Source: an uncultured bacterium
GTDB lineage: Bacteria > Omnitrophota > Omnitrophia > Omnitrophales > Abzuiibacteriaceae
Assembly: GCA_964387845.1 (NCBI GenBank)
Contig: CAYLXA010000001.1
Location: 192,001-256,000, forward strand
DNA: 64,000 nt
Direction of reading: 5' to 3'
Positions 37,648-59,004 of the stretch are shown one piece after another (position 1 is the first letter of the stretch; each line of letters begins with the position of its first letter). A program made the position numbers and the translations under genes. The notes beneath the pieces are model-generated. The model was not told the origin of the DNA, searched no databases, and worked only from the letters and a program-made list of their open reading frames with translations.

Positions 37648-38856
37648 CTAGTTCTTACAATTGTTTCTTATTTGTGCTGGTTTTGTTAGCACCATGTTAG
37701 CACGGCTTCCAAAAACTTCTTCATCCAATCTCTTCCCTACACCTTCATAAACAACCGGTAGCAAGTGTCCATATCGGTCAAGTGTTGTCTGAATAGAAGC
37801 ATGCCCTAATTGCGACTGAATAAGCTTAATATTTTCCCCCTGTGAAATCAAGAGGGTCGTGTAAGTATGTCTAAGGTCGTGAAACCGCACCCTTCTTAAT
37901 CCAGCCTTTTTGAGAGCACTAGAAAAATCCCGTTTCACCAAATTATCGGGATCCAGCGGATCGCCGTTTACATTGCAAAATATCAGATCGTGAAGTTTGG
38001 GAGGGAACAACTCACGGTATAAATTCAGTCCTTTCTCTAGAACTTTCGACATAACGATTGTTCTTATAGACCTTCTTGATTTTGGTGTAATAAATTTCCA
38101 ACGGTTACAATTCGTTTCTTTAATTTCGCGCCAACAGCGCCAATATAAACTCCTTCTCACGAAAATTATCTTCCGATTCCAGTCGATGTCTTTCCACTGG
38201 AGACCAAGCAACTCCCCTCTTCTCATCCCCGTCAGCACAGCTGTTAAAATGATGGTTCTTAGAGGTTCATCAGAGTTCTTTAAGAGAAGTCTGATATCTT
38301 GCGGTGTAAGAAAATCCATTTCTCTTTGCTCTTCTCGAATTCTGTCAATATCTGCCGCTGGATTTTCAAAGATATATTTCCATTTTCGAGCATGATTAAA
38401 CATGGTTTTTAAAAGGGACAGGTGGTGATTTACCGTCTTGGCGCTTCTTTTATCGTTTAACTCTGAAATGAATTTCTGAATATCATGCGGACGGATACCT
38501 AAAATAGCTCGGTCTCCCAACGCCGGAACAATGGTTGAATTAATCATTGACTCATAATTTCGGAATGTTGAGTCTTTAATAGAAACTCGAGCATAACTGT
38601 CTAGCCATTTCTTTGAAAATTCGGAAAACAAAATCTTGGGTGGCGCAAAGAAAGTTCCTTTATTAACGGATGAGAGTATTTCACTCAGCCTAGCCTCTGC
38701 GTCCTTTTTCTTCGGGCCAATGCGTTCCCACTTTTGCAAACGGCCTGACCTGAATATGATATAGTAGGCTGCTGATTGATGGCTGCATTTGCCGACACCG
38801 TCAGTCGCGTTTTTCCTGCATTTTCCACACCGCCATACGATACTACCTCTTGCCAT
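37648..38856 (-). CDS. int: Tyrosine-type site-specific integrase
   Basis: C-terminal catalytic box VRFHDLRHTYTTLLISQG...LGHASIQTTLDRYGHL (R..H-R-H..Y). Start taken at MARGSIVW; the track start at 38877 is further upstream. Confidence 0.9.
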   Translation of the reverse strand: MARGSIVWRCGKCRKNATDGVGKCSHQSAAYYIIFRSGRLQKWERIGPKKKDAEARLSEILSSVNKGTFFAPPKILFSEFSKKWLDSYARVSIKDSTFRNYESMINSTIVPALGDRAILGIRPHDIQKFISELNDKRSAKTVNHHLSLLKTMFNHARKWKYIFENPAADIDRIREEQREMDFLTPQDIRLLLKNSDEPLRTIILTAVLTGMRRGELLGLQWKDIDWNRKIIFVRRSLYWRCWREIKETNCNRWKFITPKSRRSIRTIVMSKVLEKGLNLYRELFPPKLHDLIFCNVNGDPLDPDNLVKRDFSSALKKAGLRRVRFHDLRHTYTTLLISQGENIKLIQSQLGHASIQTTLDRYGHLLPVVYEGVGKRLDEEVFGSRANMVLTKPAQIRNNCKN

Positions 38857-38907
38857 GACTGCCTCCAGGATTAGCAAGATTTATTGTACCGTATTTCGGT
38901 CTATTTA

Positions 38908-44083: not shown

Positions 44084-44980
44084 TTAAATCCCGTCCAGCA
44101 AAATCACCTGAATCGGGGTAAACCCGTCAACCGTGACGGATGTCTCGACTTTTACGTTCCGTAAATCCTGCCGGGCCTGGCCCGTTAAATTCTGGGCAAG
44201 GTTCATTCTGAGATTATCTTCCAATGAATAGGGGTCTCTGCTCACACCGCCTGCAAACAGACTCACCCCCGCAAGCGCTGTTTCGCCCACCGCTTTCAGA
44301 ATCCTCATGTCCGTCTGCTTGCTTACGCGCCCTTTGATGCCCGCTGAACCGTCCTCTGAAAGGGCAATCGCTCGAATCCGCCTTTCACTGCCGTCAGGCA
44401 TAATCAAAAGTTCAAAACGTACGTTGATGCGGTTGAGACTTTTTAAGACACCCGCTTCACCTAGAAACTTGGAATCCTTGGGGATAACAACTTTTCCTTC
44501 TGCTTCAAAATCTTTTGTAATAACCGCGGTTACAGGCGCCGCGACATTGAATGAAAAGATCGTATCCTTCACGAAGGCGGGAATCTTCGTGCCGGATGGA
44601 ATATTAAATTTCTGAAGCGTGGTTGATTGCGTGCCGTAAACGCTTTGGCTTCTTTTTTCCTCTTCCTTAAAAAGAAAGACATCGATATCCGTGTTGTAGT
44701 TTCTTGCTTTCCTGACCGGCCTTGCGCCGGAGAGTGCGGATGGTTTACCGTTTGATGCCTTAGGCGGCCCCGCAAAATCCGATTGGCCAAATATCTTCCT
44801 GCCGGCAGTCTCAGAATTCTTCGTGGGTTCCCCCTTATCCGTGCGCCTTTTCTGCTTGGCGCTTTGAGAATAGAAGAGAACAAGAATCATGAGCACAAGC
44901 AGTAAGACCAGCAAGACCCTGTGCTTCTTCGCCGCGCGCAACAATGTTAAGAGAGATGTCGATTTTCTAAATTCAGTCAT
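44084..44980 (-). CDS. trbI: T4SS VirB10/TrbI-family protein
   Basis: N-terminal TM, Pro/Ser-rich linker, and C-terminal IPSGTKIPAFV...VTAVITKDFEAEGKVVIPKDSKFLGEAG...RINVRFELLIMPDGSERRIRAIALSEDGSAGIKGRV matching the TrbI beta-barrel pattern. Confidence 0.65.
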   Translation of the reverse strand: MTEFRKSTSLLTLLRAAKKHRVLLVLLLVLMILVLFYSQSAKQKRRTDKGEPTKNSETAGRKIFGQSDFAGPPKASNGKPSALSGARPVRKARNYNTDIDVFLFKEEEKRSQSVYGTQSTTLQKFNIPSGTKIPAFVKDTIFSFNVAAPVTAVITKDFEAEGKVVIPKDSKFLGEAGVLKSLNRINVRFELLIMPDGSERRIRAIALSEDGSAGIKGRVSKQTDMRILKAVGETALAGVSLFAGGVSRDPYSLEDNLRMNLAQNLTGQARQDLRNVKVETSVTVDGFTPIQVILLDGI

Positions 44981-44990
44981 AATTATTTCC

Positions 44991-46007
44991 TCAATCTAGC
45001 CAGCGAAAGCCTTCGATCCGTAAGTTGCGCTCTCCCTCATCTTCAAACAGGAGGACTACCGGCTTTTCGCCTTTCTTCAAGGATCGTCTGTCAAATTGAA
45101 TGATGCCGTACTGATAAGAATCCGGAGCTACGCTTTTTTCACTCTTAAGATCAGACGGCAGTTCGACCAAGCCTTCTTTGACTTTGCGCAGACCCAAAGA
45201 TTTTTTCTCATAAGTCTGAAGCCCTACGACCATTTCCCTGATTTTGTAATCTGTTTTCGATAAATTACGAATACTGAACCTAAGATACGCTTTCTCGCCA
45301 ATCGTGGAGATGGTTAATAGGTTGAGCCTCACACCGCCCTCCTCTGCGTAATCTTTCAGCTGAACCGCTTCATTTCCTTTTTTGATTTCCTCTTTCAATT
45401 TTTCTTCGGACAAGTCCTCGGCTTTCGCATCAAGCGCTTCTTCCTTCTGTTTAAACTTTTCTTTTATAGCCGTTTCGGTTTCGTTAACCCGCTTTTCAAA
45501 TGCGTTGTCTACGATCATGTCCTCATCCGGATACCTGAAATCAATTACGAAATCAGCTGTTTCGGGTTTCCCGACCGTAACATCAAAAGTAAGCCGCGAG
45601 GATTGCGTCATGATAGTCAGATTTGTCCGCGCATCAGGATCATCCGTGACCGGTTTTATAATGACTTCCTTCTCAAAAACGCCGACTTTGAAGAGTTCCT
45701 GATCTCCGATAAACACCTTGAGCGCGGGCTCTGGCAGATCGATTGTGGAAGCATAACCGAGAGCTGTTTGGAGTTTGTAAACCACGTTCGGCCTCATGCT
45801 TGCGGAGTAAATCCTCTTCTCGCTAACGGAATTCCTATTGATCCGTTTTCTTTCGGCTACAGCGTCCTGCGGCACCTGGTCTGGGTTGGCGACGCTAAGC
45901 TCTGCTTGCTCTACGCTATTTAAATCCTTCCCAAATTCCTCTGCGCAATAGCCATCGTGCGCAAGTGCAATTAAAATTACTGCGATTAAAGTAAAGCATT
46001 TCATCAT
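44991..46007 (-). CDS. T4SS VirB9/TrbG-like secreted protein
   Basis: Signal peptide; 338 aa and beta-rich; position between the VirB8-like and VirB10-like genes. Confidence 0.5.
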   Translation of the reverse strand: MMKCFTLIAVILIALAHDGYCAEEFGKDLNSVEQAELSVANPDQVPQDAVAERKRINRNSVSEKRIYSASMRPNVVYKLQTALGYASTIDLPEPALKVFIGDQELFKVGVFEKEVIIKPVTDDPDARTNLTIMTQSSRLTFDVTVGKPETADFVIDFRYPDEDMIVDNAFEKRVNETETAIKEKFKQKEEALDAKAEDLSEEKLKEEIKKGNEAVQLKDYAEEGGVRLNLLTISTIGEKAYLRFSIRNLSKTDYKIREMVVGLQTYEKKSLGLRKVKEGLVELPSDLKSEKSVAPDSYQYGIIQFDRRSLKKGEKPVVLLFEDEGERNLRIEGFRWLD

Positions 46008-46663
46008 GATTTCTGTTCATCCTTTCTTGACAAATCATTGAGAATCAACTCTTTGTAACCATCCACAAGAAGACCTTCGGGCGTGTTTGAACTTCGGGAG
46101 ACTTTCTTTAAAACGATATCTGCGCGGAATAAGATTTCCTCCCGGAAGGACGGTTCGTCATATCTCGAGATTCGCCTGACACCAAGGAGCGAAACAACCG
46201 CGGCATCGGGTGCATCACGCTCGATTTTCGTTTCTTTAAATTCAAGTTGGGTGTCAATTTGAGCGGTCTTCAGTTTTTCAACCAAGCCCGAATCAATAAG
46301 TGATTTTCTAGCCTCATGTTGAAGCCTCGTGGTCATTAAATTGAAGGCTTCCGCGAGGTCTTTTGTGACTGTGTACGAATTAAAGCCCGTATATCTGAGC
46401 GTAAACCGTTTTGATAGGGCAATGATTTCATGGTGCGTGGGCTCGTTATGTTTTGGCAGGTCTCGAATTACTTGTGCGCCCTCAACTTCTGAAACTCTGA
46501 TGACTACCGGAGGTTTCATGCCTAATATGACGGAACCCGCAAAGGCAAGCAGCACGATGAAGGCAAGTATAAGGTTGGCTTTCCTTAAGAATTGAATTTC
46601 CATTTCGAGGTCGCCAAAAGCTTCAAAGTAGCGGCGTTTGACCTTTGCAATGATTTCGCTCAT
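46004..46663 (-). CDS. T4SS VirB8/TrbF-like bitopic protein
   Basis: Cytoplasmic N-terminus, single TM (ILAFIVLLAFAGSVILG), and a ~150-aa periplasmic domain; synteny. Confidence 0.5.
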   Translation of the reverse strand: MSEIIAKVKRRYFEAFGDLEMEIQFLRKANLILAFIVLLAFAGSVILGMKPPVVIRVSEVEGAQVIRDLPKHNEPTHHEIIALSKRFTLRYTGFNSYTVTKDLAEAFNLMTTRLQHEARKSLIDSGLVEKLKTAQIDTQLEFKETKIERDAPDAAVVSLLGVRRISRYDEPSFREEILFRADIVLKKVSRSSNTPEGLLVDGYKELILNDLSRKDEQKS

Positions 46664-47505
46664 GAATTTCCTCCTGAGTAATTCGTCTGCCCTCTGCGGC
46701 TAGGAGTGAACCGGACAGCCGGAATGTGCCGCACGATTCTTTCCATGATTCTTCCGCCGATGCCGAACACTCGTCCGCCCGCCTGCGTGAAACCTTCTGC
46801 GCCCCGGATCATCATCAAAGAAATCATGGGCACAAAGAAAAGTATGATCAAAATGATGATGACGTTCATCGCAAACAAATCAAGATTGAGCGTTTGGGTA
46901 TTGGTGTAAAACTCGAAGAAATTAAGTTCGAAGAGAATACGGACAAAAAGAGACAACACGACGTTCCAATTCAACACTTCAAAGAGCCAGCGTACCCATA
47001 TCCGTGCCATGCCGGGCTGGAAAATACCGACACCCAAGAAGACAGGCCCTGAGATATAAAGCGCTGAAAGGAAAACGATCCTCACCCATCCAAATCCCCG
47101 AAGAATTGCGTAGGATATGTTGTAAGTTCCCTGCATCATCAAATCGAGAAAAGTCATCTTAAGAAGCGCAAGCATTCCCAGGTCATGATTTTGACGATAA
47201 GCCGTGAAAATCTTCTGTATCTGGTCTTTAAATTCTTCAGCCGGCATGAAGAAATTGGCAAGCAAATCCATTCCTCTTGAAACTTCTTCAAAGAAGGGCG
47301 TATAAATTGAATAAAGGCCGGTGATGAGCAGGACTCGGACGAAAAGTCCCGCGTAGTCGCTCCGCCCCTCCATTCCGTGCAAAAATTCTTTAATCAAGGC
47401 GAGTGTTAGAAACACGAAGATAAAACTGTAGCCGACTTCCCGAACCTCATGATAGAAGGCCGCGAAAATAGTGATGATTTCTTGGGTGGTGGGAAGTGAA
47501 CTCAT
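46660..47505 (-). CDS. T4SS VirB6/TrbL-like polytopic membrane protein
   Basis: 281 aa with at least five TM helices; synteny between the VirB5-like and VirB8-like genes. Confidence 0.5.
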   Translation of the reverse strand: MSSLPTTQEIITIFAAFYHEVREVGYSFIFVFLTLALIKEFLHGMEGRSDYAGLFVRVLLITGLYSIYTPFFEEVSRGMDLLANFFMPAEEFKDQIQKIFTAYRQNHDLGMLALLKMTFLDLMMQGTYNISYAILRGFGWVRIVFLSALYISGPVFLGVGIFQPGMARIWVRWLFEVLNWNVVLSLFVRILFELNFFEFYTNTQTLNLDLFAMNVIIILIILFFVPMISLMMIRGAEGFTQAGGRVFGIGGRIMERIVRHIPAVRFTPSRRGQTNYSGGNS

Positions 47506-48296
47506 CAGCCCGGCCTTCCCAAACTTTCAATACCAAGCTGCATCTCGCGCATATATTTAAGACGCTCCCGCTCGAAGCGCTTTTCATCGCGCGACACTTG
47601 CTCTAATTTGGTTGCTTCAACCTCAAGCAACTTGGCGAATATTTCCTGATTCTCTTGCGTAACGACAATCAATTTTCCGGAGGCATCCGCTGAAAGTCTT
47701 GCCGCCCCTTTTGGACTTGCCGTCTGCGATAATTCTTGAATGGTCTCGCCCGCTTGCTTTGTTTCATCTGAGCGCTTTCTAATTTCATGCGCCATTAAGT
47801 AAGCTTCGCCCACCTGCGATTCATCAAATGTGATATAGGGACGCTCCACAGATTGAGGGTCCATTCCATGAATGGTTTCAATATAGGACTTGATGCCTGA
47901 CGGGTCGCCGTAACCTTCAAGTATGGTCCCCAAATTTCGGATGGCGTCTTGTTCAACGGACGGTTCGAATCCAGCAAGGAATCCATCCCGAAATGTCGAC
48001 TGTGAATCTCTGAAGGCCCGCGCCGCATCCTGGACAAAACTTCTCACGAATTCTTCGATGCCAGCGTTAAAGCGCATCATTTCCTGATACGTGTTTTCAA
48101 GTTCCGTAAGCTGATCGAATAATACGATAATTTCCTGTGCAAACTGATTTTCCATCAAGGAATTGCGAAGTTCATTCAGCGCGGCATTGACAAAATCAAT
48201 CACAGGCAGATCCGCCTTCGCTGTGCCGGGGCAGACGGCTAGGCTTGCTGCTAAGTAAAGCGAGATGACCGTCAACCTTAATTTTGGTGATTTCAT
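47505..48296 (-). CDS. T4SS VirB5/TrbJ-like secreted coiled-coil protein
   Basis: Signal peptide, helical region; 263 aa; synteny after VirB4. Confidence 0.45.
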   Translation of the reverse strand: MKSPKLRLTVISLYLAASLAVCPGTAKADLPVIDFVNAALNELRNSLMENQFAQEIIVLFDQLTELENTYQEMMRFNAGIEEFVRSFVQDAARAFRDSQSTFRDGFLAGFEPSVEQDAIRNLGTILEGYGDPSGIKSYIETIHGMDPQSVERPYITFDESQVGEAYLMAHEIRKRSDETKQAGETIQELSQTASPKGAARLSADASGKLIVVTQENQEIFAKLLEVEATKLEQVSRDEKRFERERLKYMREMQLGIESLGRPG

Positions 48297-50773
48297 ATGG
48301 CAGGAGCCTCCTTACGCCACGTGATTCCTCGCGGATATTTACCCGCGAGTATTCTCAGCCGTTCCAACTCACTCAAACTTGGCTCCATTGCGCGGAGCCT
48401 TTCCTCCTCGATTTGGTCGTTGGGCTCTGTTGTTGCAATCCAGTAGTCAAGGGGCGAGGGCTCAAGCTTAGCCGTGACAGCTTTGTTAAAAAACTTGATG
48501 AAGATTTCGGAGAAAACACCGGGCCTTATTTCCAATTCTTCGCAAGCGCTGACCTCATTCGGATTCAGGTCAAACTTAGACAGCAATTCATGCCCCTTTT
48601 GAAGCTTTAAAATGTATTTCACGTAGGAATTGGAAAGAATGGCGGGTGCCGCCTTTGATTGAAGAAAATCCACAGGGCTTTGGCTGATTGAAAGAACGAG
48701 ACCGTTTGTCTTTCTGGCTGTTCTGTAAAGCTCTTCAATCAGCTTTGAGCCGACATCGTCATTAAAAAAGCGCCATCCTTCGTCAATGACAATGATTTTG
48801 CGGAGCGAAATGTCACCCAGTTTTCTAGCAATGGCGGATCGGATCACAAAAAAAAGAATGGATTGCAGTTCAGGGTGCTGTGAAAGCTTGCCCAAGTCAA
48901 AAACAATGAATCGGTTATCAAAAGTCAGGCTGCTTTGCCGGTTCAAGAGCCTGCCAAAGCGACCTTCGGTCCACATGCTTAAATTCTTTGAGAATTGATA
49001 CGCTTTCCGCTTGTCCTCGTCATCACCCGCCGCATAATTTCGAAGAATCATTTGCACATCGCCCAAAAGAGGTCGGTGTGTATCCTGAATGCTTTCGTAG
49101 ACTTTCAGAATTGATTGTTCAAGAATTCGAAGCTCTGAACTTTTCACTCTCTCCCTCTCAGAGACCATCTTTTCAAGCAGGGTGCTCAGAAAACCTAAAA
49201 GATCGGCGTTCACTTCGCCGGGCTTTGGGAATAATTGACGTTTCTCAGGAAATAGGTTAAGCGCATATTCTTCCGTGCAGTCGATTTGCAAGTAATGACC
49301 GTCAAATAAACGCGCAAGTTTTTTATAACTGCCGCCCATATCGATTACGATAACGTGATTCCGATCTCCTGCGATGAGAAAACTGCTCAGCAAATGATTC
49401 GCAGTGAATGACTTCCCGGAACCCGTGCTCCCAATCATGACTGCATGCTTCGCCGGAAGCGACGGATCAAAAAGATTAAGCGCAAACCCTTCGTCTTCGT
49501 GAGTTTTGAGCAAAATATCGAAGTCATCCGTTCCCTTCCATTCTTCCCCGAGCGGCAATAGATGGCTCAATGCGCCTGTTAAGACAGGAAACACGGATTG
49601 ATTTTGATCGGCCTGCAGGGGTAAATGTGACAGAAACAACGTGTCATGCTCCAAATGATCGAAGATTCCGACTGAGCCGCCCAGTTTCGGGAAAGCTTTC
49701 AAAACAGCTTCCTTCTTACGAGCAAGCGCCGCTTCGTCCTTTGCCTTAATGAGCACAGAAAGCGAGATATCAAAGACGCTTTCGCCTTGCTCGGCCATTT
49801 GATGAAGAAATGATTCGTATTGGGACGCCTTTTGCCTTGCAAAGTGATCCTCTGAAATCCGGAAGAAGGCGTTTGCGTGCGCGAAATTGGCTCTGATTCG
49901 AAGCTTGCCAATTTCTTTGTCCTGGTCTTTCTTCCTAAGAGTAATCATCCATTCTGAATCATCCGGCATAAGGCGATCAAATGACTTAATCATTTTCAAG
50001 CCGACATGGCCGGGCAGCGTCCTTAAATTAGCAGCCGAATGAAAATAACCGTCCATATAAAGCGAATTTCTGTAAATTTTGGGCGGATGAAGCAAGAGCC
50101 GCGACCTCAGCGTTTCAAACTTGGGATTGGTTAATGGATTCTCCTGAAACGCGTCTTCGTATCGGACAATCTGAGATAGTGAAGGATTAAGTTTCCTGTA
50201 GTACTCGCGGATAACGTCCATTGCGGAAAGTCTCTCGACCGTGACACCCAAGGCCTTCAACGCCGTGATGATCAACGACTCAGCTTGAAGCAGATAAGCC
50301 TTGCCTTCTTCATGATTTGAGCGATGAAATGATCTTGACCGCTTCCGTTTTTTCTCAGGGCTTAAATGGCTTAAAAACAAAAAAATTTCCTTTTTTACCA
50401 AACGCGAATTTGTTAGTACATTTACTTTCTCCCGCACGATCACGTTGACCAATGGGTCTTGGCGTGAGGTGTTCGCTTGACACCTCCCGAGCATCTCATC
50501 GTCGCCCCGGCTTGAGCGTTTAACGAATGACAATAAAATCCCTGAGGGCAGCCGATTCAGCAGTTTCTGAAGTTCATGCATGAACGCGACTATTTCGGCG
50601 TCATCATAAAGAAGGTAATCAACACCTGAAACTTTATAGACAAGCGCCATTCGCCCTGAAACCCCGACGGCTAAGCCATCTTCTTCAACAGCCATGAGAT
50701 CAAGTGCCGGGAAAAATGGAACGCGTTGCAGTGAGTCGCTCAATTCTTTAATCGTCAGCAATGTTTCCATCAA
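48293..50773 (-). CDS. T4SS VirB4/TrbE ATPase
   Basis: 826 aa; Walker A MIGSTGSGKSF, Walker B IVIDEGW; CagE/TrbE/VirB4 organisation. Confidence 0.9.
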   Translation of the reverse strand: MMETLLTIKELSDSLQRVPFFPALDLMAVEEDGLAVGVSGRMALVYKVSGVDYLLYDDAEIVAFMHELQKLLNRLPSGILLSFVKRSSRGDDEMLGRCQANTSRQDPLVNVIVREKVNVLTNSRLVKKEIFLFLSHLSPEKKRKRSRSFHRSNHEEGKAYLLQAESLIITALKALGVTVERLSAMDVIREYYRKLNPSLSQIVRYEDAFQENPLTNPKFETLRSRLLLHPPKIYRNSLYMDGYFHSAANLRTLPGHVGLKMIKSFDRLMPDDSEWMITLRKKDQDKEIGKLRIRANFAHANAFFRISEDHFARQKASQYESFLHQMAEQGESVFDISLSVLIKAKDEAALARKKEAVLKAFPKLGGSVGIFDHLEHDTLFLSHLPLQADQNQSVFPVLTGALSHLLPLGEEWKGTDDFDILLKTHEDEGFALNLFDPSLPAKHAVMIGSTGSGKSFTANHLLSSFLIAGDRNHVIVIDMGGSYKKLARLFDGHYLQIDCTEEYALNLFPEKRQLFPKPGEVNADLLGFLSTLLEKMVSERERVKSSELRILEQSILKVYESIQDTHRPLLGDVQMILRNYAAGDDEDKRKAYQFSKNLSMWTEGRFGRLLNRQSSLTFDNRFIVFDLGKLSQHPELQSILFFVIRSAIARKLGDISLRKIIVIDEGWRFFNDDVGSKLIEELYRTARKTNGLVLSISQSPVDFLQSKAAPAILSNSYVKYILKLQKGHELLSKFDLNPNEVSACEELEIRPGVFSEIFIKFFNKAVTAKLEPSPLDYWIATTEPNDQIEEERLRAMEPSLSELERLRILAGKYPRGITWRKEAPAI

Positions 50774-51033
50774 ATTTCCTCCCGTGTCTGTGTGAAATAG
50801 GCGGGCATGAAAAAATAACGAATCAAATTCTTAGTAAACCTGTCTGCCTTATTCCTTTTGTAATATCTGAGAAATAAATAGACCGCGAAGACAAATGAAA
50901 GATTGACCATGAGATTCTTTGAGCCGAGAAAGACCATAAGATAGACCGCTAACAAACCAAGCAAGTCCATCCATTCAAGACCGAAGAATTTGTTTTTTTG
51001 TGTAATCATTGGATACATCGTTATTGGCTTCAT
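50770..51033 (-). CDS. T4SS VirB3/TrbD-like small membrane protein
   Basis: 87 aa with two TM helices; translationally coupled between the VirB2-like and VirB4-like genes. Confidence 0.55.
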   Translation of the reverse strand: MKPITMYPMITQKNKFFGLEWMDLLGLLAVYLMVFLGSKNLMVNLSFVFAVYLFLRYYKRNKADRFTKNLIRYFFMPAYFTQTREEI

Positions 51034-51034
51034 G

Positions 51035-51337
51035 CTAAAACCCCGTCACATTCTTTATTAAGTCAAGCACTGCTCGGGCAAGCATAATGAGCGCTCCGCC
51101 CCCTGCTGCCAGGGCACCGCGCCTCATGCCTTGTTCATTTCCAAGCGCCATTGAAATACCAGATACCGCAATTCCGATCACAAGTATTCCAGGACCTACG
51201 CTCTGTATTAGAAAAGTCCCAACAGCATCCAGGAAATAGCCCAACTCTTCTTGATTCTGCGCCTCCGCATACGCAATGCCCGCGTGAAGATAAATAGCCG
51301 TCAGTATCACAAGATATTTCGCAATCATTTTCCGCAT
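51035..51337 (-). CDS. T4SS pilin VirB2/TrbC-like; start taken at the internal ATG (MRKMIAKYL)
   Basis: Long signal peptide ending AYA, then two hydrophobic helices (GILVIGIAVSGISMALG / ALAAGGGALIMLARAV) typical of conjugative pilins. The track start at 51430 is a TTG. Confidence 0.6.
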   Translation of the reverse strand: MRKMIAKYLVILTAIYLHAGIAYAEAQNQEELGYFLDAVGTFLIQSVGPGILVIGIAVSGISMALGNEQGMRRGALAAGGGALIMLARAVLDLIKNVTGF

Positions 51338-51412
51338 ATATTCACCTTGGGGGATAGCGGGGTCAATTTTGACCCCGCCCTTTGGAACAGCCGCATGCGC
51401 TGTAAAAGTCCC

Positions 51413-51456
51413 CTCATAGATGTTGTGCAAAAACGGGCATTTCGTAACAAGAAATT
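51413..51456. promoter_or_regulatory. Conserved ~45-nt element (copy 1), ~75 nt upstream of the pilin gene; candidate promoter/operator
   Basis: ctcatagatgttgtgcaaaaacGGGcatttcgtaacaagAaaatt is about 90% identical to 58630-58674. Confidence 0.5.
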
Positions 51457-51468
51457 TAAAATCCCATC

Positions 51469-51837
51469 TTAAAATTTATTTTTCAGTATCTGGATTCCCA
51501 CATATTTCTTGAGTTTGGTCGCAGCCCTGCGTATATGCATCCGTACGATCGCGCTATCTGAAATATTCAACTCTTCTGCTATTTCCAGATTGCTCAATCC
51601 TTGCAATGTTAATCTGACGCACTCACGCTCTCTCTTAGACAGCCCGGCACGACTTATGGCTCGTCTTGCCATTTCTTTCTGTTCATTTTCAATCAGCACC
51701 TCGACCGGCGAGGGCTGAGTGGCCACCTTCTTCAGAATTTCTTGATGCAAATCGGTTTTTGGGTCATTTTCGATCTTCTGAAAATCGACACCGATACGCA
51801 CCGTTCTCTTTGTTTTCCATTGAGTGTTGTTTTCCAT
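51469..51837 (-). CDS. LuxR/GerE-type HTH transcriptional regulator
   Basis: C-terminal LSKRERECVRLTLQGLSNLEIAEELNISDSAIVRMHIRRAATKL; 122 aa. Confidence 0.7.
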   Translation of the reverse strand: MENNTQWKTKRTVRIGVDFQKIENDPKTDLHQEILKKVATQPSPVEVLIENEQKEMARRAISRAGLSKRERECVRLTLQGLSNLEIAEELNISDSAIVRMHIRRAATKLKKYVGIQILKNKF

Positions 51838-51997
51838 TTTCCACCTCCATATGGTGGAAAATGGGCGAATACCTCCTTCTATAACTCTTTAACTAATAAA
51901 TACTTACGATAATTTTATAGGCGAATATACGGATAGACACAAAAAAAGACACCTGTAAGCGGACGAGGGCGGAAGGAATTCCGCCCTCGTTTCACAC

Positions 51998-52312
51998 TTA
52001 ATTCCTAATCCTCCGGATTGTTGAGATCCAAGCTTGAAGATCGCGATTCAAGAATCGCAACCGTTCAGCAATGTTTGCCATTGGAGGCTTCTGCTCGATG
52101 ACCTCAATACTCTTTGCGCCTGCCGAATTCGGCTGTCTGGCTTGGAGCCATCCCGCAAACGATTGGGCAAAGAAGCAAATTGCTAAGACCACCGGAGCGA
52201 TGAGAAACATTAAATTGATAAAGGCAGCCAGCATGCACTTCAGCAAGAAAATGGTGAAATTCCGCAGCCTGCCTAATGCCTTTTTTATTTCGGTTAGAAT
52301 GAATTGTTTCAT
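51998..52312 (-). CDS. Hypothetical membrane protein
   Basis: 104 aa with one or two TM helices; no recognisable domain. Confidence 0.35.
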   Translation of the reverse strand: MKQFILTEIKKALGRLRNFTIFLLKCMLAAFINLMFLIAPVVLAICFFAQSFAGWLQARQPNSAGAKSIEVIEQKPPMANIAERLRFLNRDLQAWISTIRRIRN

Positions 52313-52324
52313 TTTGAATTATCC

Positions 52325-53362
52325 TTATACGAGTTGATATTGCCGGTTTTGAATTTCCAAGTTACTTTCCTCCTTTTCGTACTCCGTTAGATAATCAAAG
52401 CTGCAATCTTCACAGAATGAGCCGCCGGTTGCTTCGTCATAAAAGAGTTTGCCGGCTTCCACTTGGTCTTTACACAGTGAACATAGAAGCTTTGATTTTT
52501 CAGTGATGTTTGAATCTTCGAGAAATCCCATATACCGAAGCTCATCAAAGCTGTAGAGATAGGGATTCCCCGGCACTTTGAAGTCATCCTCTGTGAGCGA
52601 CTTGCGCATCGGGTTCTCCATCTCGCAAGGTATTTTTCGCATGGGACATTTTTCAGAAAGTTCTTCAACGTTAATTTTGTAAAGCACGTTGGATTGAATC
52701 TCGAGAAAATTGCCTTTCATGAAGTTTCTTGCAAGAGCGTATTGCAAGTGGATTTTCTCGCTCGACCAAAGCAAGGTTTTGAACTTAGGGACATAAACAG
52801 CGTAAAGCGTCCGTTCAACATTTCGGATGAGATAAAGCGTTTTCCTGTCATCCGTTTGCATGAATGCCAACGCAAAATCCCCAAACATCATCGAAAGCCG
52901 TTCAGCGACTTCTCTGTCGGAGGAGGCGCCATCCAAAACACGGAATACCGCCTCGCTATCGACGTCAGTTTTTTGCTCCGTGTTAAATCGTTTGAGAAGT
53001 TCAGTTCGATTTAGAAAATGCCCATTGTGCACACCGGCAAAATTCTCCGAGACAAACGGATGACAATTCCGGGATGAGATTGCTCCTACTGTGGCAAGCC
53101 GCGTATGGCCCAGAACAATGAGCGTATCCGCACCGATTTTCTTGATGACGTTACGCATCCGGACGGTGCGCAAAAGCTCGCTCGCTGGTCTGGCTTCCTT
53201 GAAAACGGTCATGCTCTCTTCTGCTGCTGTGAGCAATCCAGTTCCGTCTTGACCTCTTGTTTCATTGAGAAAAGCCAAATCCATCACTACGCCTTGAAGC
53301 CTCAGTTTCTCTGCTCCGCTTAAGGGCAGGGCCTCTCTCACAAATCCGAATATTCCACACAT
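52325..53362 (-). CDS. Class-II (Ntn) glutamine amidotransferase domain protein with C-terminal Cys-rich zinc ribbon
   Basis: N-terminal MCGIFGF, the Cys-2 nucleophile hallmark of GAT-II/Ntn hydrolases; ...HTRLATVG...NCHPF; C-terminus CSLCKD...CEDCSFDY. Confidence 0.65.
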   Translation of the reverse strand: MCGIFGFVREALPLSGAEKLRLQGVVMDLAFLNETRGQDGTGLLTAAEESMTVFKEARPASELLRTVRMRNVIKKIGADTLIVLGHTRLATVGAISSRNCHPFVSENFAGVHNGHFLNRTELLKRFNTEQKTDVDSEAVFRVLDGASSDREVAERLSMMFGDFALAFMQTDDRKTLYLIRNVERTLYAVYVPKFKTLLWSSEKIHLQYALARNFMKGNFLEIQSNVLYKINVEELSEKCPMRKIPCEMENPMRKSLTEDDFKVPGNPYLYSFDELRYMGFLEDSNITEKSKLLCSLCKDQVEAGKLFYDEATGGSFCEDCSFDYLTEYEKEESNLEIQNRQYQLV

Positions 53363-53410
53363 GGTAAGTCTCCTTAGGTTTAATTGGGATTGAACTACTG
53401 AAGTGATAAA

Positions 53411-54685
53411 TTACTTTTGAACAGCTGCCAGAGTGGGAGCTGTTTCGAAGAACTTCTCGGGATGAAACTTTAAGATCCTTTGCTCGATGTAATTCCGAAT
53501 CTTCGTCCGGAATTTCAGCAGCACGCAGAATGCCTCAAACTGTTCTTTGAATGAAGCAAACTCCGAAAACCTGAAGTCTCTTTGACGCTTTGACTCGTCT
53601 ACGATCGCTTGGCAGATCACAATGAAATTTGTAATCTTAAGCGGGTTCGTTGTTCCCGAGTGATAGCGAAACTCCACTGAACGCCTGAAGAACCAAGAGT
53701 GAATGTTGACACCGAAGTATCTTGAGTTGTCAAACTTAGACTTCGTATCCACTCGCGCATTCCTTCTGCCGTACCAGAGCCGCTTTAAATCCATCTCATC
53801 TTTGACTTTGAACCGGAACCGTGATTTGGGAAATCGATTGAGCGGCACGGAGTAAGAACCGGAAAACCTTGATTCCGGAAGCATGGCATAAATCACCGGC
53901 TCAAACGCCACCGCAATCTTCAGCAATTTCTTGATGTTCTGAAAATCAAGATCCCGCCCATCAATGTGGACATGAAGACCGCAGCGCTTGTCCACGAAGT
54001 AATTCCAGTCAAGCAGCTTTTGAGTGAAAATGGCGATTTCGTTAAAGCCGTCATCGCCTTGAAGAATCGGGCTCGCAAATTCCATGCCCCAATCTCCCAG
54101 AGAGCCGTCATGCTGTTTGCTCCAAGCGCCCACTTCATCAACCGGAAGATGCATTTCCTCATCCCGAAGTATGGCTTCAATTTCCACGCCGTATTTTCTT
54201 TTTGATTTGCACAGTTTGAATTTAGCCGACGAAAATTCATGGTGCTGAATCAGCTCGCCGTTCTCCACCATGCGGTCGTAACAGTCTTCACAGTAAGTTG
54301 ACTCCCCTCTTCTAAAGCAGCGGGTAGAGTCAACCTCAGAACCGCAATCCTCGCAGAAGATTATGTTTTCAGATTCACAGGCGGAGCAGTAATAGACGTC
54401 CTGCAAATCTGAATAACGAGCGTCCTCTGACGCCGCATATTCCCCGCAGGCATTGCATTCCCTGTAATTGGCGTGAAAGCAGCTTTCACAAAGCCTCAAC
54501 CCTGCAACTGCAAAGGATTCGTCAAGCCACATGGGACGTTCGCATTTCCCGCACGGCTTCACACGTTTTTCAAAACACGCCGGGCAAAGATACCGGTCTT
54601 GATAGGTTTTAAACAAATCGACGTTTACGACAACACTGCAGGACGGGCATTTCTTTTCTTCTGCCCGTATTTCCAAAAGTTCCAT
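53411..54685 (-). CDS. Putative amidoligase (glutamine-synthetase/GCS2-like, Amidoligase_2-type) with N-terminal array of six CxxC zinc ribbons
   Basis: N-terminal 150 aa contain CPSC, CPAC, CGKC, CESC, CNAC, CSAC, CEDC, CEDC pairs. The C-terminus has YGVEIE, GLHVHIDG and VEFRYHSGT motifs reminiscent of the amidoligase family. Confidence 0.5.
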   Translation of the reverse strand: MELLEIRAEEKKCPSCSVVVNVDLFKTYQDRYLCPACFEKRVKPCGKCERPMWLDESFAVAGLRLCESCFHANYRECNACGEYAASEDARYSDLQDVYYCSACESENIIFCEDCGSEVDSTRCFRRGESTYCEDCYDRMVENGELIQHHEFSSAKFKLCKSKRKYGVEIEAILRDEEMHLPVDEVGAWSKQHDGSLGDWGMEFASPILQGDDGFNEIAIFTQKLLDWNYFVDKRCGLHVHIDGRDLDFQNIKKLLKIAVAFEPVIYAMLPESRFSGSYSVPLNRFPKSRFRFKVKDEMDLKRLWYGRRNARVDTKSKFDNSRYFGVNIHSWFFRRSVEFRYHSGTTNPLKITNFIVICQAIVDESKRQRDFRFSEFASFKEQFEAFCVLLKFRTKIRNYIEQRILKFHPEKFFETAPTLAAVQK

Positions 54686-54709: not shown

Positions 54710-54898
54710 TCAAACTGTCTGGTGATCTTGGCTTTGGTTTTTAACTGACATGCGATCTCTGCGCTTTCGCTCATAGAGACGCTTTAATATCCACAAGGGA
54801 ACGAACGTCCAATACCCTCTTGGCCTTCCTGTCCACTCCGAAAGCTGGTCCGCATAAACTGATTTGTCTTCTGAGTCAAAAATGATGTAGGGATTCAT
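54710..54898 (-). CDS. Small hypothetical protein (62 aa)
   Basis: AAGGAG RBS directly after a hairpin; sequence MNPYIIFDSEDK... Confidence 0.35.
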   Translation of the reverse strand: MNPYIIFDSEDKSVYADQLSEWTGRPRGYWTFVPLWILKRLYERKRRDRMSVKNQSQDHQTV

Positions 54899-54965
54899 GG
54901 CAAGCTCCTTAAGTGAGAGGGCGGAAACTTTTTATTTCCGCCCTCTTTGTGTGACATGGCTTTGA

Positions 54966-55061
54966 TCAGCGCAGGACAATGGCCCAGCCGAACCGAACAA
55001 AATCTGTAATAAGATCCGGCATCAGCATTGCTTTGGCGCGTGAAACAATCAGCGTCTTCAT
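54966..55061 (-). CDS. Candidate 31-aa peptide MKTLIVSRAKAMLMPDLITDFVRFGWAIVLR
   Basis: Hand-translated; strong RBS AAAGGAGGT 8 nt upstream; flanked by two related GC-rich hairpins. Confidence 0.3.
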   Translation of the reverse strand: MKTLIVSRAKAMLMPDLITDFVRFGWAIVLR

Positions 55062-55141
55062 GGAATAAACCTCCTTTGAAAAGACAAAGGGCGAAGAATC
55101 GCTTCTCCGCCCTTTGCTTAATAGTTTGATCGAAGTTCTTA

Positions 55142-55369
55142 CTAGCTGACTTGGACTTGCTGTTCAGCTCTGCGCAAACCTTCAATCAGTTCGCCGATGA
55201 GCGCACAGTTAATTGTGACGCCTTTCTTCGTCGGCCGCGCTTCGCCCGTTACGGCATCAGCGAAAAAGACCCTGACATCAACGTAATCACGGTCTTTGTA
55301 CTTGCCGACTGAGATTTTAACTTCTTCGTTTTCATTACGTTTAAAACTGTAAATTTCCTGCTTTTCCAT
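55142..55369 (-). CDS. PC4/YdbC-like ssDNA-binding protein (paralog 2)
   Basis: 75 aa; ...VGKYKDRDYVDVRVFF...KKGVTINCALIGELIEGL is the PC4-like pattern; AAGGAGA RBS. Confidence 0.5.
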   Translation of the reverse strand: MEKQEIYSFKRNENEEVKISVGKYKDRDYVDVRVFFADAVTGEARPTKKGVTINCALIGELIEGLRRAEQQVQVS

Positions 55370-55454: not shown

Positions 55455-55499
55455 AAAAAAGGGGAAGAAGCCTGCTGAACAGACCTCTTCCCCTCTTTT
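55455..55499 (-). terminator. Rho-independent terminator downstream of the coupling-protein gene
   Basis: aaaaaaGGGGAAGAAGcctgctgaacagaCCTCTTCCCCtctttt; flanked by a 15-nt direct repeat ttttgatttaatgtt (55384-55398 and 55496-55510). Confidence 0.65.
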
Positions 55500-55536: not shown

Positions 55537-57360
55537 TCATCGTTTGGCTCCTCTTATCTTTTCAAATTTATGCGCAGTATCACTGAGCGTTTGAAACTGA
55601 TCGCTTTCGTCTTGAACGATTTCAGGCTTTGCGCTTTCACGTTTCCAATGCTCTGTTGCCCGCTCACGTTCATCTTTAATCTTCATGTGTATCCATGTTA
55701 AATTAATGTCTGTTTCAGAGGACAGCCGCAGATAATCAATTTTAAAACTTGGATATTTCATGACAACAATCGCTTCGCCGCGTCCAAGTGAACGAACCAA
55801 GTCAGGGTCGATGCGAAACGTCTGCGCTTCTCTGACAGATCCTCGCCCTGTCATGTCTGTGCCGAGCATGCCGGATTCAGTCTGATACGTGGAAACAAAA
55901 GTTCTTCGGGAGCCTCCAATTTTTGAATATTTGTCAATCGAGAATGGGTCATCCTGACGCATGATGATTTTTACGTTTGTGTTCTCGAGGATTTGCTGCT
56001 GAAAGGTCATGCGCTTCGCCGCGAGGTCAGCCAGGCTTTGGTGAAGAAGCGTTACAGCAAGTTTGGCGCCGCGCGCTTTATTCATGAAATCGATGAAGTT
56101 CTCGTAGACAAAGCTTGAAAATTCATCCACGTACACAGGAAAAAAGTGCCGCTCACCCTCTTCCATCTGCGTTTGAATGTAGTTGGAAACTGTTTTAATG
56201 TCCTGCAGGATGAGACGCCCGAATCTTTTCGCCGTTTCTTCGTAGCCCTGCGTATTGAGTGCGAAATAGACAATTTTATTCTTCTGATAAACCTCTAGGA
56301 GGTCAATTTTTGATTCCTGAGAATCCGTCAGTCTTGAAAACTCTGATTTAGTTACGAGGCCTAAATCCGCGATGAATCCAGAGAGAAACTTGGTATTATC
56401 ATGAAACATGTCTTTCATGACTTCCAAGTCCTTCGACATCCGGATATCGTCAAGCTGCGCTATCAGCGCTCGTAATTGATTCTTGTCCGTTAAAAGCTCA
56501 TACAAATCCCGGAACCTGACTTTTCTGTTCAAACTCACCAAAGCTCTGAGCAATGTCAATGCGGCTTCTTCCGCCTTTTTTCTGTAAAATTCCTCGCGCC
56601 ATTCAGTAGAGCCGATCAGTTTGTCCTTAATCTCTGATGCGTTTCCGCGCAAGAGTGGGTTGTATGTGTCCGATATTTCCGGATGTGATAGCGAGAAGAA
56701 TAGAAAGTCATCTTTCCTGCCGTTAATTTGAACAAAGTAACGAATCTTCGCCAATAATTCCAAATCGCCCTTGGCGTCCACGACTATCGCCCCGCGGCCT
56801 CGCTCGATATCCCTTTTAAGCAGCGGAAGCATGACTGATTCTGTTTTACCAACGCCCGTTGAACCTACAACATGCGTATGCATGAGCCTCATGTCATCCG
56901 TTAAGTAACAGCCCTTGCCCGACCAATAACTCGTACCCAGATAAGCTTGATTCGCCTCAACCGCCGTTTTTTGCTTCGTGATTTCTCTCGAAGAAATTCT
57001 CTTCAATCTGCGTTTCTTATCGTCAGAGGATGTATCTTTCGAATTCTTCATTGCATATCCCGTCAACATGAAAAACGGCAATGTAATCAACAAATAGGCG
57101 CTGTAGAGGCACGTAGCCGCGACTCCCGCTTTCGTCCAAGGTCTCGCCTCAAACCTTTCAACAAACCCATTTAAATATTTAATTGACCAAATGGTCGTAA
57201 GCGCTGCAAGCAAGGTGCTCAAATAAGCTATTATCTTGACCCAAGAACTAGATTGATTCTTGACCCATCCGTCAAGCTTCTTGCCCAACCATACCGGAAC
57301 GGATACGAAAAGGAATTCAAACGTTGACCCCGTAAGGCCCTTTGACGGCTTCTCATTCAT
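55537..57360 (-). CDS. Type IV coupling protein (VirD4/TraG/TraD family)
   Basis: Two N-terminal TM helices; Walker A VVGSTGVGKTES, Walker B-like IVVDAKGDLE, and the TraG/VirD4-like C-terminal all-alpha region; 607 aa. Confidence 0.8.
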   Translation of the reverse strand: MNEKPSKGLTGSTFEFLFVSVPVWLGKKLDGWVKNQSSSWVKIIAYLSTLLAALTTIWSIKYLNGFVERFEARPWTKAGVAATCLYSAYLLITLPFFMLTGYAMKNSKDTSSDDKKRRLKRISSREITKQKTAVEANQAYLGTSYWSGKGCYLTDDMRLMHTHVVGSTGVGKTESVMLPLLKRDIERGRGAIVVDAKGDLELLAKIRYFVQINGRKDDFLFFSLSHPEISDTYNPLLRGNASEIKDKLIGSTEWREEFYRKKAEEAALTLLRALVSLNRKVRFRDLYELLTDKNQLRALIAQLDDIRMSKDLEVMKDMFHDNTKFLSGFIADLGLVTKSEFSRLTDSQESKIDLLEVYQKNKIVYFALNTQGYEETAKRFGRLILQDIKTVSNYIQTQMEEGERHFFPVYVDEFSSFVYENFIDFMNKARGAKLAVTLLHQSLADLAAKRMTFQQQILENTNVKIIMRQDDPFSIDKYSKIGGSRRTFVSTYQTESGMLGTDMTGRGSVREAQTFRIDPDLVRSLGRGEAIVVMKYPSFKIDYLRLSSETDINLTWIHMKIKDERERATEHWKRESAKPEIVQDESDQFQTLSDTAHKFEKIRGAKR

Positions 57361-58088
57361 CCCAAGATGGAGCGTAGAGGAATTCTGGATGCCTTATTCA
57401 TCAGCTCCGCATCTTTCTTTTTCAGTAAGAGCTCATCATAGAGCACAAAGCAAAGCTTATTCTGAGGAACTTCAATGTCCAATAGCCAGCTCTTCACCAT
57501 GTGCCAAGACAGGATATAAATCACCAGGGTGAAATCATTTAGACGGCTGTATTTCGCAAACCTTGTCTCATACCTTTCCCGTTCCCTGAAGGAATTTTCA
57601 AGTTCAATCGCAATTCTCTGCCCGCTTACTTCGATGACCGCGTCAGGAAAAAATTCCCGGTCGTGCTCTTCTTTTCTGACAACCCGTTCGCTCAGCCATT
57701 TAACACCCTTAAAGTCCCGAAACAGGCACCGCAACGTCGCCAACTTGAGCGTATGCTCTATCGTATATTGGTTGATATCCCCGATTTCTCCAAAGCCACG
57801 GTCCAGCCCTTTCTCTTTCAAGACATCTATCCCCTCAGCCGTCAGCAGAAAAAGTCTCACTTTTTCTGATTTCGCCTTCTGGACATCCAAAGTCCTAATA
57901 AATCCTGCATCAACAAGCTTGCTCAAACGCTGCCTTGCAGTTCCTGACCTCACTTCGCTGTCAGGCCAAAATGCCGAGTAAATTTGATTCGCCATCATGT
58001 ACTTTTGTTCATTCAAGTACGTGAATATCTCGATATCACGCTCTGTAATGACGACACGCCGCAATTTATCCAATAAGTTTTCAGCCAC
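57357..58088 (-). CDS. Replication-relaxation family protein (winged-helix N-terminus); candidate non-canonical relaxase/accessory factor
   Basis: N-terminal wHTH ERDIEIFTYLNEQKYMMANQIYSAF...RQRLSKLVDAGFI; 243 aa; translationally coupled to the coupling-protein gene. Confidence 0.4.
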   Translation of the reverse strand: MAENLLDKLRRVVITERDIEIFTYLNEQKYMMANQIYSAFWPDSEVRSGTARQRLSKLVDAGFIRTLDVQKAKSEKVRLFLLTAEGIDVLKEKGLDRGFGEIGDINQYTIEHTLKLATLRCLFRDFKGVKWLSERVVRKEEHDREFFPDAVIEVSGQRIAIELENSFRERERYETRFAKYSRLNDFTLVIYILSWHMVKSWLLDIEVPQNKLCFVLYDELLLKKKDAELMNKASRIPLRSILG

Positions 58089-58674: not shown

Positions 58675-58761
58675 CAAGCAAATTCAATTAACAGATGGAA
58701 AATATTTTTTTATGTCTATTAATGAACTCAATTCATTCAACTCACCACTTCCTCACGAGCA

Positions 58762-58852
58762 CCTGTCCAAAAACCCTATCTCTCTACACACACCACACCC
58801 ACTGACAAGTACCCCTCGATTACGGATGGGAGAGATAGGGTTTTTGGACGGG
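58762..58852. repeat. Long perfect inverted repeat (20-bp arms, extendable to 23 bp with one G-U pair, 45-nt loop); candidate oriT or structured RNA
   Basis: 58765-58784 gtccaaaaaccctatctctc and 58830-58849 gagagatagggtttttggac; lies in the 455-nt non-coding gap between the STAND gene and the relaxation/T4CP block. Confidence 0.6.
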
Positions 58853-59004
58853 GACTCTCCCCGACGCTTGTGCGAAGTGAGGAAGTTACGTAGAATGCTT
58901 CAGTTACGAAGGAAGCGATGAATTCAAGTTCCCCTAAGTTACAATTTTTTGCGGGGATGAATGCGGAAATTTAAAATTAAACAAACATGTTCTTACGGTA
59001 ATGC

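Follow-up and report, generated by a model that had tools for sequence, protein, structure and literature searches.

A conserved gene pair encoding a zinc-ribbon amidoligase and a class-II glutamine amidotransferase in the backbone of a conjugative element from an Omnitrophota genome

A 64,000-nucleotide stretch of DNA from an uncultured Omnitrophota bacterium of the family Abzuiibacteriaceae (GenBank assembly GCA_964387845.1, contig CAYLXA010000001.1, positions 192,001 to 256,000 of the forward strand; hereafter the window, numbered from its first letter) carries, beside host genes, an integrative conjugative element (ICE). Within the backbone of this element lie two adjacent genes, encoding an amidoligase with an array of zinc ribbons and a class-II glutamine amidotransferase (GAT-II). 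Both proteins have intact catalytic residues and carry the same type of acidic zinc module, and the pair keeps its place in about 20 related loci. The Amidoligase_2 plus GAT-II module as such is already known, having been described computationally and widely annotated in phages; what is new is the setting, in which the module is reduced to two genes with matching zinc modules and forms a fixed backbone part of a conjugative-element family from Omnitrophota genomes. We tentatively propose, at somewhat less than even chances, that the two proteins are the subunits of a glutamine- and ATP-dependent amidotransferase, directed by its ribbons to a macromolecular target during establishment of the element.

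The GAT-II gene lies 48 bp downstream of the amidoligase gene (Table 1), and each is preceded by an AAGGAG ribosome-binding site. Homology searches retrieved 509 homologues of the amidoligase and 46 of GAT-II, and about 35 close GAT-II homologues had a conserved length; the number of homologues and the conserved length indicate that these are real genes, not chance open reading frames (ORFs).

Pfam analysis of the amidoligase revealed a match to Amidoligase_2 (PF12224) of 87.9 bits (cut-off 22, E = 1.2e-24) over residues 198-362, and it also matched the PHROG ‘amidoligase enzyme’ (E = 1e-28). In the predicted model the catalytic domain is of the glutamine synthetase (GS)/GCS2 type, with YbdK, gamma-glutamylcysteine ligase (GCL) and GS as its closest structural relatives, and no sequence match to any PDB chain was detectable. 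The motifs GVEIE (residues 166-170), HVH (238-240) and EFR (338-340) are all present in the C-terminal domain, and E168, E170, D193, S195, E202, H238, H240, R273, R322, N327, E338 and R340 are invariant in an alignment of 56 homologues. By analogy, the conserved acidic, histidine and arginine residues may bind metal or ATP. An initial annotation of this DNA, made from the letters, had proposed a GS-like amidoligase on the strength of these motifs; the profile match and the GS/GCS2-like fold bear this out and speak against an unrelated family. No experimental characterisation of any Amidoligase_2 family member was found in the searchable literature.

The partner protein matched the Pfam family GATase_6 at 49.5 bits (cut-off 27), as well as GATase_7 and GATase_4. 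NCBIfam models linked it with the GlmS and PurF glutaminase domains, and more weakly with EgtC (E = 1e-5) and AsnB. By sequence, the match to PurF and GlmS reached E = 8e-9, and that to the YafJ-type hydrolase 3mdn E = 0.002. Its AlphaFold2 (AF2) model (pLDDT 90.8) shows a complete domain of the four-layer Ntn fold and gave best Foldseek matches to PurF (1ao0, 7e-14) and to the GlmS glutaminase domain (1xff, TM 0.72 on target). The nucleophile Cys2, right after the initiator methionine, is kept in at least 90% of 36-39 homologues, and Arg88, the Asn113-Gly114 pair and Asp135 show little or no variation and align with PurF and GlmS motifs. Arg88 and Asp135 are the residues that bind the free alpha-carboxylate and alpha-amino groups of glutamine, and Asn113-Gly114 is the oxyanion pair. 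GAT-II is closer to the ammonia-channelling enzymes PurF and GlmS than to YafJ/EgtC-type hydrolases. Its orthologues, about 35 in number, span 336-356 aa, so the gene encodes an entire stand-alone glutaminase instead of being a fragment. The profiles and the model agree with the initial assignment of the MCGI protein, from its MCGIFGF start, as a Cys-2 Ntn amidotransferase. A truncated glmS, asnB or purF pseudogene, which the annotation had named in part as a possible refutation, was ruled out by the full-length orthologues, the intact glutamine-site residues and the confident PurF/GlmS-like model.

The two proteins are further linked by their zinc ribbons. The first 135 residues of the amidoligase contain exactly eight CxxC pairs (at 13, 34, 45, 66, 77, 100, 111 and 132), where six to eight had been counted initially, and these are arranged as four Cx2C-x17-19-Cx2C units. 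The model of the N-terminus shows four repeats of ~32 residues, each made of two beta-hairpins and a helix (hairpin-hairpin-helix). Conservation is at least 90% in the last two units (C77-C135) over 56 homologues from the ICE and phage clades, and the first two vary more. GAT-II carries one CxxC pair at residue 294 and another at 317, both near its C-terminus. A hidden Markov model (HMM) of the zinc-ribbon unit, built from 179 units (consensus YFTCSDCGEEVDRDDLRESENGEYYCEDCYDERED), scored the C-terminal ribbons of GAT-II at a median of 13.8 bits, compared with shuffles that preserved the cysteines, whose median was -0.5 bits and whose 95th percentile was 4.4 bits. As the HMM recognises the GAT-II tails above these shuffles, the amidoligase and GAT-II carry the same zinc module; the extra ribbons that had been remarked on in both proteins are thus present and in fact of one shared type.

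The modules are strongly acidic. The amidoligase array of this element has a net charge of -13, and the median for 47 homologues is -23; the GAT-II tails range from -3 to -17, with -10 here. This acidity points to protein-protein contact and away from ordinary nucleic-acid binding. An exhaustive search with the array alone matched 325 proteins; among the 147 retrieved from the best 150 of these matches were 59 amidoligases, 41 small stand-alone proteins and 47 proteins with unrecognised partners, and Pfam recognised nothing useful in the fusion partners other than amidoligases. In the loci examined, a ribbon on GAT-II was seen only where the partner ligase has ribbons.

The genomic setting was defined from the gene content of the window. 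Host housekeeping genes (MetH, MgtC-like, MsrA, HemN and BacA, the last at 36270-37040) stop at ~37.0 kb, and all DNA from the tyrosine integrase to the end of the window is co-oriented and belongs to the element. Its blocks are, in order, a group of nucleotidyltransferase (NTP-transferase), HlyD, family-2 glycosyltransferase (GT2) and outer-membrane efflux protein (OEP) genes; the type IV secretion system (T4SS); a LuxR-type regulator; the pair; PC4, the type IV coupling protein (T4CP) and Replic_Relax; and a DUF4062-STAND NTPase. The signature of an ICE is present: a single block adjoining the host genes holds an integrase, a VirB2/3/4/9/10 T4SS and a coupling protein. The element is therefore an ICE, and its right end falls outside the window. 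Pfam confirmed that the pair is embedded, as first noticed, between T4SS and coupling-protein genes, with TrbC, TraL and VirB4 on one side and PC4-like, VirD4-type and Replic_Relax proteins on the other.

Homologues with 45-73% identity keep their gene order in ~20 loci. The shared order is Replic_Relax, T4CP, PC4 (one or two copies), a variable region (often with RadC), amidoligase, GAT-II, a second variable region, a small membrane protein, LuxR, TrbC, TraL, and VirB4 onwards. The matches with 47-53% identity came from a scan of species-representative genomes (L010-L022, L026), and all the named ones are metagenome-assembled genomes (MAGs) of Candidatus Omnitrophota; the integrase/T4SS/coupling block was also found in the Omnitrophota loci L010-L022, L026 and L155. 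The pair is adjacent in every ICE locus that has downstream sequence, with gaps of 47-60 bp. Identities are 47-53% for the amidoligase and 45-50% for GAT-II, beside 37-42% for VirB4, 46-58% for T4CP, 31-33% for Replic_Relax and 35-43% for PC4. PC4 was detected in 17 of the 20 related loci, and two of the three remaining contigs start at the amidoligase. The cargo around the pair varies, with a restriction-modification system in L005, and a STAND NTPase here versus YceI in L155. Because it is conserved like the transfer genes and holds a fixed position amid variable cargo, the pair belongs to the backbone and not to the cargo. Conservation across related ICEs, a point raised by the initial annotation, is therefore seen as the same pair in the same order throughout these loci.

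Two small neighbours of the pair, orf62 and orf104, were considered as an obligatory third subunit and rejected. By tblastn, orf62 is found at 43-49% identity in L002-L004 and L022, and a 61-aa ORF is called in L155/L156; it is missing from most other loci and so limited to the closest relatives. The orf104 family is present in all related ICEs, not always adjoining the pair, and in many loci inserted genes lie between them. In one Omnitrophota MAG (AM-lipid-02-D9_bin-1187), three copies of the ICE region were found on different contigs (L014, L020 and L021), which suggests either several related elements per genome or a strain mixture in the bin.

The zinc-ribbon amidoligase is also common in viral contigs, at 24-33% identity, and structural relatives of it occur in many cultured phages. 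Homologues are known from culturable phages such as Pseudomonas phage tf, the LUZ24-like phages, Cellulophaga phage phi14:2 and Aeromonas phage LAh_9. One scan of viral contigs gave 265 relatives, and 80 loci were examined. In most of these GAT-II lies within ~300 bp of the amidoligase, often overlapping it or 0-4 bp apart. A larger phage module consists of a second amidoligase of ~600 aa, a GAT-II with two to three ribbons, a conserved protein of ~100 aa, and then the zinc-ribbon amidoligase. Two or more amidoligases surround one GAT-II in many phage contigs (L009 10001-12192 and 18796-20622; L007 1-405; viral loci L076-L121). The ~100-aa protein between GAT-II and the zinc-ribbon amidoligase has the consensus ...VGI..PI.IKSK.YV...LY.KAK.NPF...GWL.E... 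and gave no Pfam or PHROG match. Recurrent viral neighbours are replication and recombination genes, together with DUF1599 (‘nucleotide modification associated domain 1’; 38/80 loci), gamma-glutamyl(amine) cyclotransferase (GGACT; 23/80, counted within 6 kb of the module) and a Pyr_excise glycosylase (17/80); because of the relatedness among the 80 loci, these co-occurrences cannot be counted as independent. Profiles of GGACT, DUF1599, Pyr_excise and the ~100-aa protein had no matches in the window or in the 20 related ICE loci, which rules out phage accessory genes hidden in the ICE.

Plasmid records contained only distant, unpaired amidoligases. The model conjugative plasmid pCW3 of Clostridium perfringens and ~95 other C. 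perfringens plasmid records carry a 468-aa amidoligase (in pCW3, L074 7341-8747, equal to NC_010937 41334-42740, WP_003479695) beside dcm and a DUF4417 gene. Like the protein described here, it is encoded on a conjugative element, and its Amidoligase_2 domain follows an N-terminal part that binds zinc and an acidic linker. It differs in having a SWIM-like CxC...CxH finger in place of CxxC ribbons, in an identity of ~30% over half the protein, and in the absence of a GAT-II gene from the 13.3 kb stretch examined.

Iyer et al. 2009 (Mol Biosyst 5:1636) are said to have predicted the Amidoligase_2 plus class-II GATase module computationally in phages and prophages. Later papers cite that study for the speculation that the pair could modify the cell wall, take part in superinfection exclusion or serve secondary metabolism, and the pair has been counted among the auxiliary metabolic genes of phages (PMC10580990). 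Amidoligase and amidotransferase genes have been reported near thymidine-hypermodification clusters in viral metagenomes, with functions there called unknown (Lee et al., PMC8989533), and GGACT genes accompany the module in LUZ24-like phages (PMC3890496). The searchable literature yielded annotation or citations of Iyer et al. 2009, and no experimental characterisation of the amidoligase/GAT-II pair, in keeping with the description of the pairing in the initial annotation as known and functionally uncharacterised. Papers on fimbrial modification in Klebsiella were set aside as irrelevant, their subject being an ATP-grasp enzyme.

Several known systems resemble the pair in part. The phage module (in LUZ24-like, OM43/HMO-2011-type and many other phages) has the same two families, adjacent and co-oriented and often with ribbons on both proteins, at 24-33% identity; it is often larger, with GGACT, DUF1599, ATP-grasp or COOH-NH2 ligase genes frequently nearby, whereas the ICE form is a two-gene core within the backbone. 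YbdK/GCS2 carboxylate-amine ligases, GCLs and GSs share only 9-16% identity with the amidoligase described here, to which a zinc-ribbon array and a dedicated glutaminase partner have been added. Unlike the setting of PafA and Dop (Pup ligase and depupylase/deamidase), that of the pair has no Pup-like gene and no proteasome context, and the partner enzyme is a different one. Split synthetase and glutaminase subunits from neighbouring genes are found in MurT/GatD, which amidates a carboxylate in an ATP-dependent reaction (PMC3267633), and in archaeal GMP synthase (PMC13329287); those systems combine a Mur ligase or an ATP-pyrophosphatase with a class-I GATase, in contrast to the GS-like ligase and class-II GATase here. 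The ergothioneine enzymes EgtA and EgtC likewise place a GCL-type ligase and a stand-alone enzyme of class-II GATase fold in one pathway, and GAT-II has its weak EgtC match; however, EgtC hydrolyses gamma-glutamyl compounds and donates no ammonia, and the EgtB, EgtD and EgtE genes are absent here. Gat-QueC, in which a phage GATase is fused to an ATP-dependent amidating enzyme, offers a chemical precedent.

The features of the pair are consistent with a reaction in which the N-terminal cysteine of GAT-II would hydrolyse free L-glutamine with release of ammonia. The GS-like subunit would phosphorylate a carboxylate of the substrate with ATP and then capture the ammonia, converting -COOH to -CONH2; its fold is the one by which acyl-phosphates are made and ammonia or amines captured. 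From the adjacency and co-conservation of the two genes, we infer that ammonia would be channelled from GAT-II to the ligase. The shared acidic zinc modules, four on the ligase and one on the glutaminase, could hold the subunits together in a complex or dock both on one macromolecular target, most likely a basic and possibly DNA-binding protein. The pair would act when the DNA of the element enters a new cell and becomes established there, in host takeover or counter-defence; this timing is suggested by its place in the ICE backbone beside PC4 and, in relatives, RadC, and by the location of its relatives among phage replication and recombination genes. Cyclisation or modification of the pilin by the ligase was also considered and was set aside by reasoning, since pilin maturation is periplasmic or membrane-bound, the ligase is presumably cytoplasmic and ATP-dependent, and its phage homologues occur without pilins.

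A number of observations weigh against this proposal. YbdK, GCL and GS, to which the ligase is structurally closest, activate glutamate and not a macromolecular carboxylate. Some phage ribbon-bearing ligases pair with ribbonless GAT-IIs, so the link between ribbons on the two proteins does not always hold in that direction. Fusion of the amidoligase and GAT-II domains was absent among the listed homologues, so Rosetta-stone support is lacking. With regard to counter-defence, PADLOC gave no matches for the pair and its neighbours, and no paper was found that links amidoligases with conjugative elements, anti-defence or the leading region.

The alternative that best survives, though we regard it as unlikely, is a gamma-glutamyl tagging cycle. 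Here the ligase would activate the gamma-carboxylate of free glutamate, as do GCL, YbdK and PuuA, and join it to an amine of the target, and GAT-II, instead of donating ammonia, would take off or process this tag as a gamma-glutamyl amidohydrolase, in the manner of EgtA/EgtC in ergothioneine synthesis. The weak EgtC match of GAT-II fits this scheme, and Arg88 and Asp135 could equally bind gamma-glutamyl-X; the GGACT genes near the module in viral loci and in LUZ24-like phages would also suit it. However, neither GGACT nor any other phage accessory family was found in the ICE loci, a writer and an eraser as the sole two conserved genes would amount to a futile cycle, and GAT-II is nearer to the PurF/GlmS type than to the EgtC/YafJ type.

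Modification of the envelope is improbable. In this scheme a cytoplasmic precursor of the cell wall or of a surface polymer would be amidated, as lipid II is by MurT/GatD, so that the host surface is changed, for entry, superinfection exclusion or adaptation of the wall to the T4SS. PMC10580990 and PMC11318856 credit Iyer et al. 2009 with this idea for phage phiEco32, and the MurT/GatD chemistry provides a precedent (PMC3267633). A conserved membrane protein follows the pair, and the same ICE carries OEP, HlyD, GT2 and NTP-transferase envelope genes. Nevertheless, an acidic multi-zinc-ribbon array would be unexpected for a small lipid-linked substrate, inserted genes part the membrane protein from the pair in many loci, and in phages the pair lies among replication and recombination genes and not among lysis or envelope genes.

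We give slightly less credence still to the modification of nucleic acids or nucleotides, in which a carboxyl-bearing base modification or a nucleotide would be amidated or extended, and the resulting DNA hypermodification would shield incoming DNA from restriction. Co-occurrence with thymidine-hypermodification clusters (PMC8989533), the DUF1599 and Pyr_excise-type glycosylase genes near the pair in viral loci, and the ICE neighbours PC4, a single-stranded DNA (ssDNA) binder, and RadC are in its favour. The ICE loci, however, are without a hydroxymethylase, base kinase, aGPT-Pplase, DUF1599 or glycosylase, the acidity of the zinc modules is unfavourable for DNA binding, and the co-occurrences in the interrelated viral loci may mirror only a common phage backbone. 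Least probable of all is auxiliary metabolic cargo acting in nitrogen/glutamine metabolism or small-metabolite synthesis without a transfer role: the phage auxiliary metabolic gene listing (PMC10580990) and the generic family annotations would allow it, but the pair has a fixed place between T4CP/PC4 and the pilin genes in ~20 loci while real cargo nearby is variable, its conservation is on a par with that of the transfer genes, and zinc-ribbon targeting modules would be unexpected for a free metabolite.

Three hairpins with a common stem, GGGCGG(A/G)...CCGCCC, lie around the pair (3 matches against 0.01 expected by chance) and are kept with compensatory base changes in the closest relative (L155/L156). 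They delimit a unit of orf62, amidoligase, GAT-II and orf104, and may serve as attenuators or terminators, setting how much transcription reads through into it. Between PC4 and orf62 lies a 31-codon ORF (MKTLIVSRAKAMLMPDLITDFVRFGWAIVLR, 54966-55061, minus strand) with a strong ribosome-binding site (AAAGGAGG), which is conserved in L155 and gene-called in L156. Right after the coupling-protein gene is a very strong hairpin resembling an intrinsic terminator (55456-55498, minus strand), with a 20-bp stem and a T run, that is kept in L155/L156.

Elsewhere in the element, the NTP-transferase, HlyD-like, GT2 and OEP block (39330-43814, minus strand) lies between the integrase and the T4SS; because the OEP and GT2 genes occupy the same place beside TrbI in L155, it appears to be the element's own and not the host's. 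The ORFs scanned included no canonical MOB relaxase, and the Replic_Relax protein was the one candidate among them. A 28-nt inverted repeat (58757-58784 / 58830-58857), with arms 89% complementary and 45 nt apart, is intergenic and upstream of orf135/Replic_Relax/T4CP, and is a candidate transfer origin (oriT) or regulatory site. The 1304-aa protein with an N-terminal DUF4062 and a STAND NTPase (59005-62919, minus strand) looks like defence-type ICE cargo, and PADLOC gave no match for it.

Table 1 Features of the gene pair and its surroundings, in window coordinates.
Feature	Coordinates	Strand	Evidence or remark
Tyrosine integrase, left end of element	37648..38877	-	Pfam Phage_integrase
Mating-pair-formation genes TrbI/VirB10, CagX/VirB9, three unassigned ORFs, VirB4/TraC, TraL/VirB3, TrbC/VirB2	44084..51430	-	Pfam; syntenic in related loci
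LuxR/GerE-type regulator, between pair and pilin gene	51469..51837	-	Pfam GerE, E = 2e-11
Hairpin after orf104	51963..51990	-	Common stem; closes the orf62-amidoligase-GAT-II-orf104 unit
orf104, single-pass membrane protein (104 aa), 12 bp downstream of GAT-II	51998..52312	-	
GAT-II gene, class-II (Ntn) glutamine amidotransferase	52325..53362	-	345-aa ORF starting MCGIFGF; GATase_6/7/4; GlmS and PurF NCBIfam matches; AF2 model
GAT-II C-terminal zinc ribbon, residues 291-320	52403..52492	-	Same module type as amidoligase repeats; C294, C297, C317 and C320 conserved
Amidoligase gene with zinc ribbons	53411..54685	-	424-aa ORF
GS-like catalytic domain of amidoligase, residues 160-424	53414..54208	-	
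Array of four zinc-ribbon modules, amidoligase residues 10-141; eight CxxC pairs, net acidic	54263..54658	-	CxxC positions and model repeats
orf62 (62 aa), directly upstream of amidoligase	54710..54898	-	Conserved only in closest relatives
Hairpin GGGCGGAAA...TTTCCGCCC, upstream of orf62	54916..54946	-	One of three with common stem; follows the 31-codon ORF
Hairpin after PC4	55085..55116	-	Common stem
PC4-like ssDNA-binding protein, upstream neighbour	55142..55369	-	Pfam PC4, E = 5e-11
Type IV coupling protein (VirD4/TraG-like)	55537..57360	-	Pfam T4SS-DNA_transf and TraG-D_C
Replic_Relax family protein	57357..58088	-	Pfam PF13814, E = 5e-7; sole relaxase candidate seen

The Amidoligase_2 plus GAT-II module is among the more widespread phage enzyme pairs, and the two-gene form offers a simpler handle on this pair, which was described computationally in 2009. 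That a minimal form is fixed beside ssDNA-handling genes argues that the two proteins suffice as a unit, and that their function lies in DNA entry or establishment and not in phage-specific metabolism. A bolder extension of the amidotransferase proposal, which we consider a long shot, is that the pair represents a new type of establishment or counter-defence enzyme common to conjugative elements and phages, in which the acidic arrays would mimic DNA and dock a basic host protein that binds DNA (a nucleoid protein, for instance, or a nuclease of restriction or another defence). The ligase, supplied with ammonia by the glutaminase, would then covalently neutralise its catalytic or metal-binding Asp/Glu residues by conversion to Asn/Gln. 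If so, enzymatic amidation of protein carboxyl groups would be a weapon in the conflict between mobile elements and their hosts. More generally, should the product turn out to be a covalently modified host protein or nucleic acid, the pair would bring a new chemistry to the strategies of mobile elements against their hosts.

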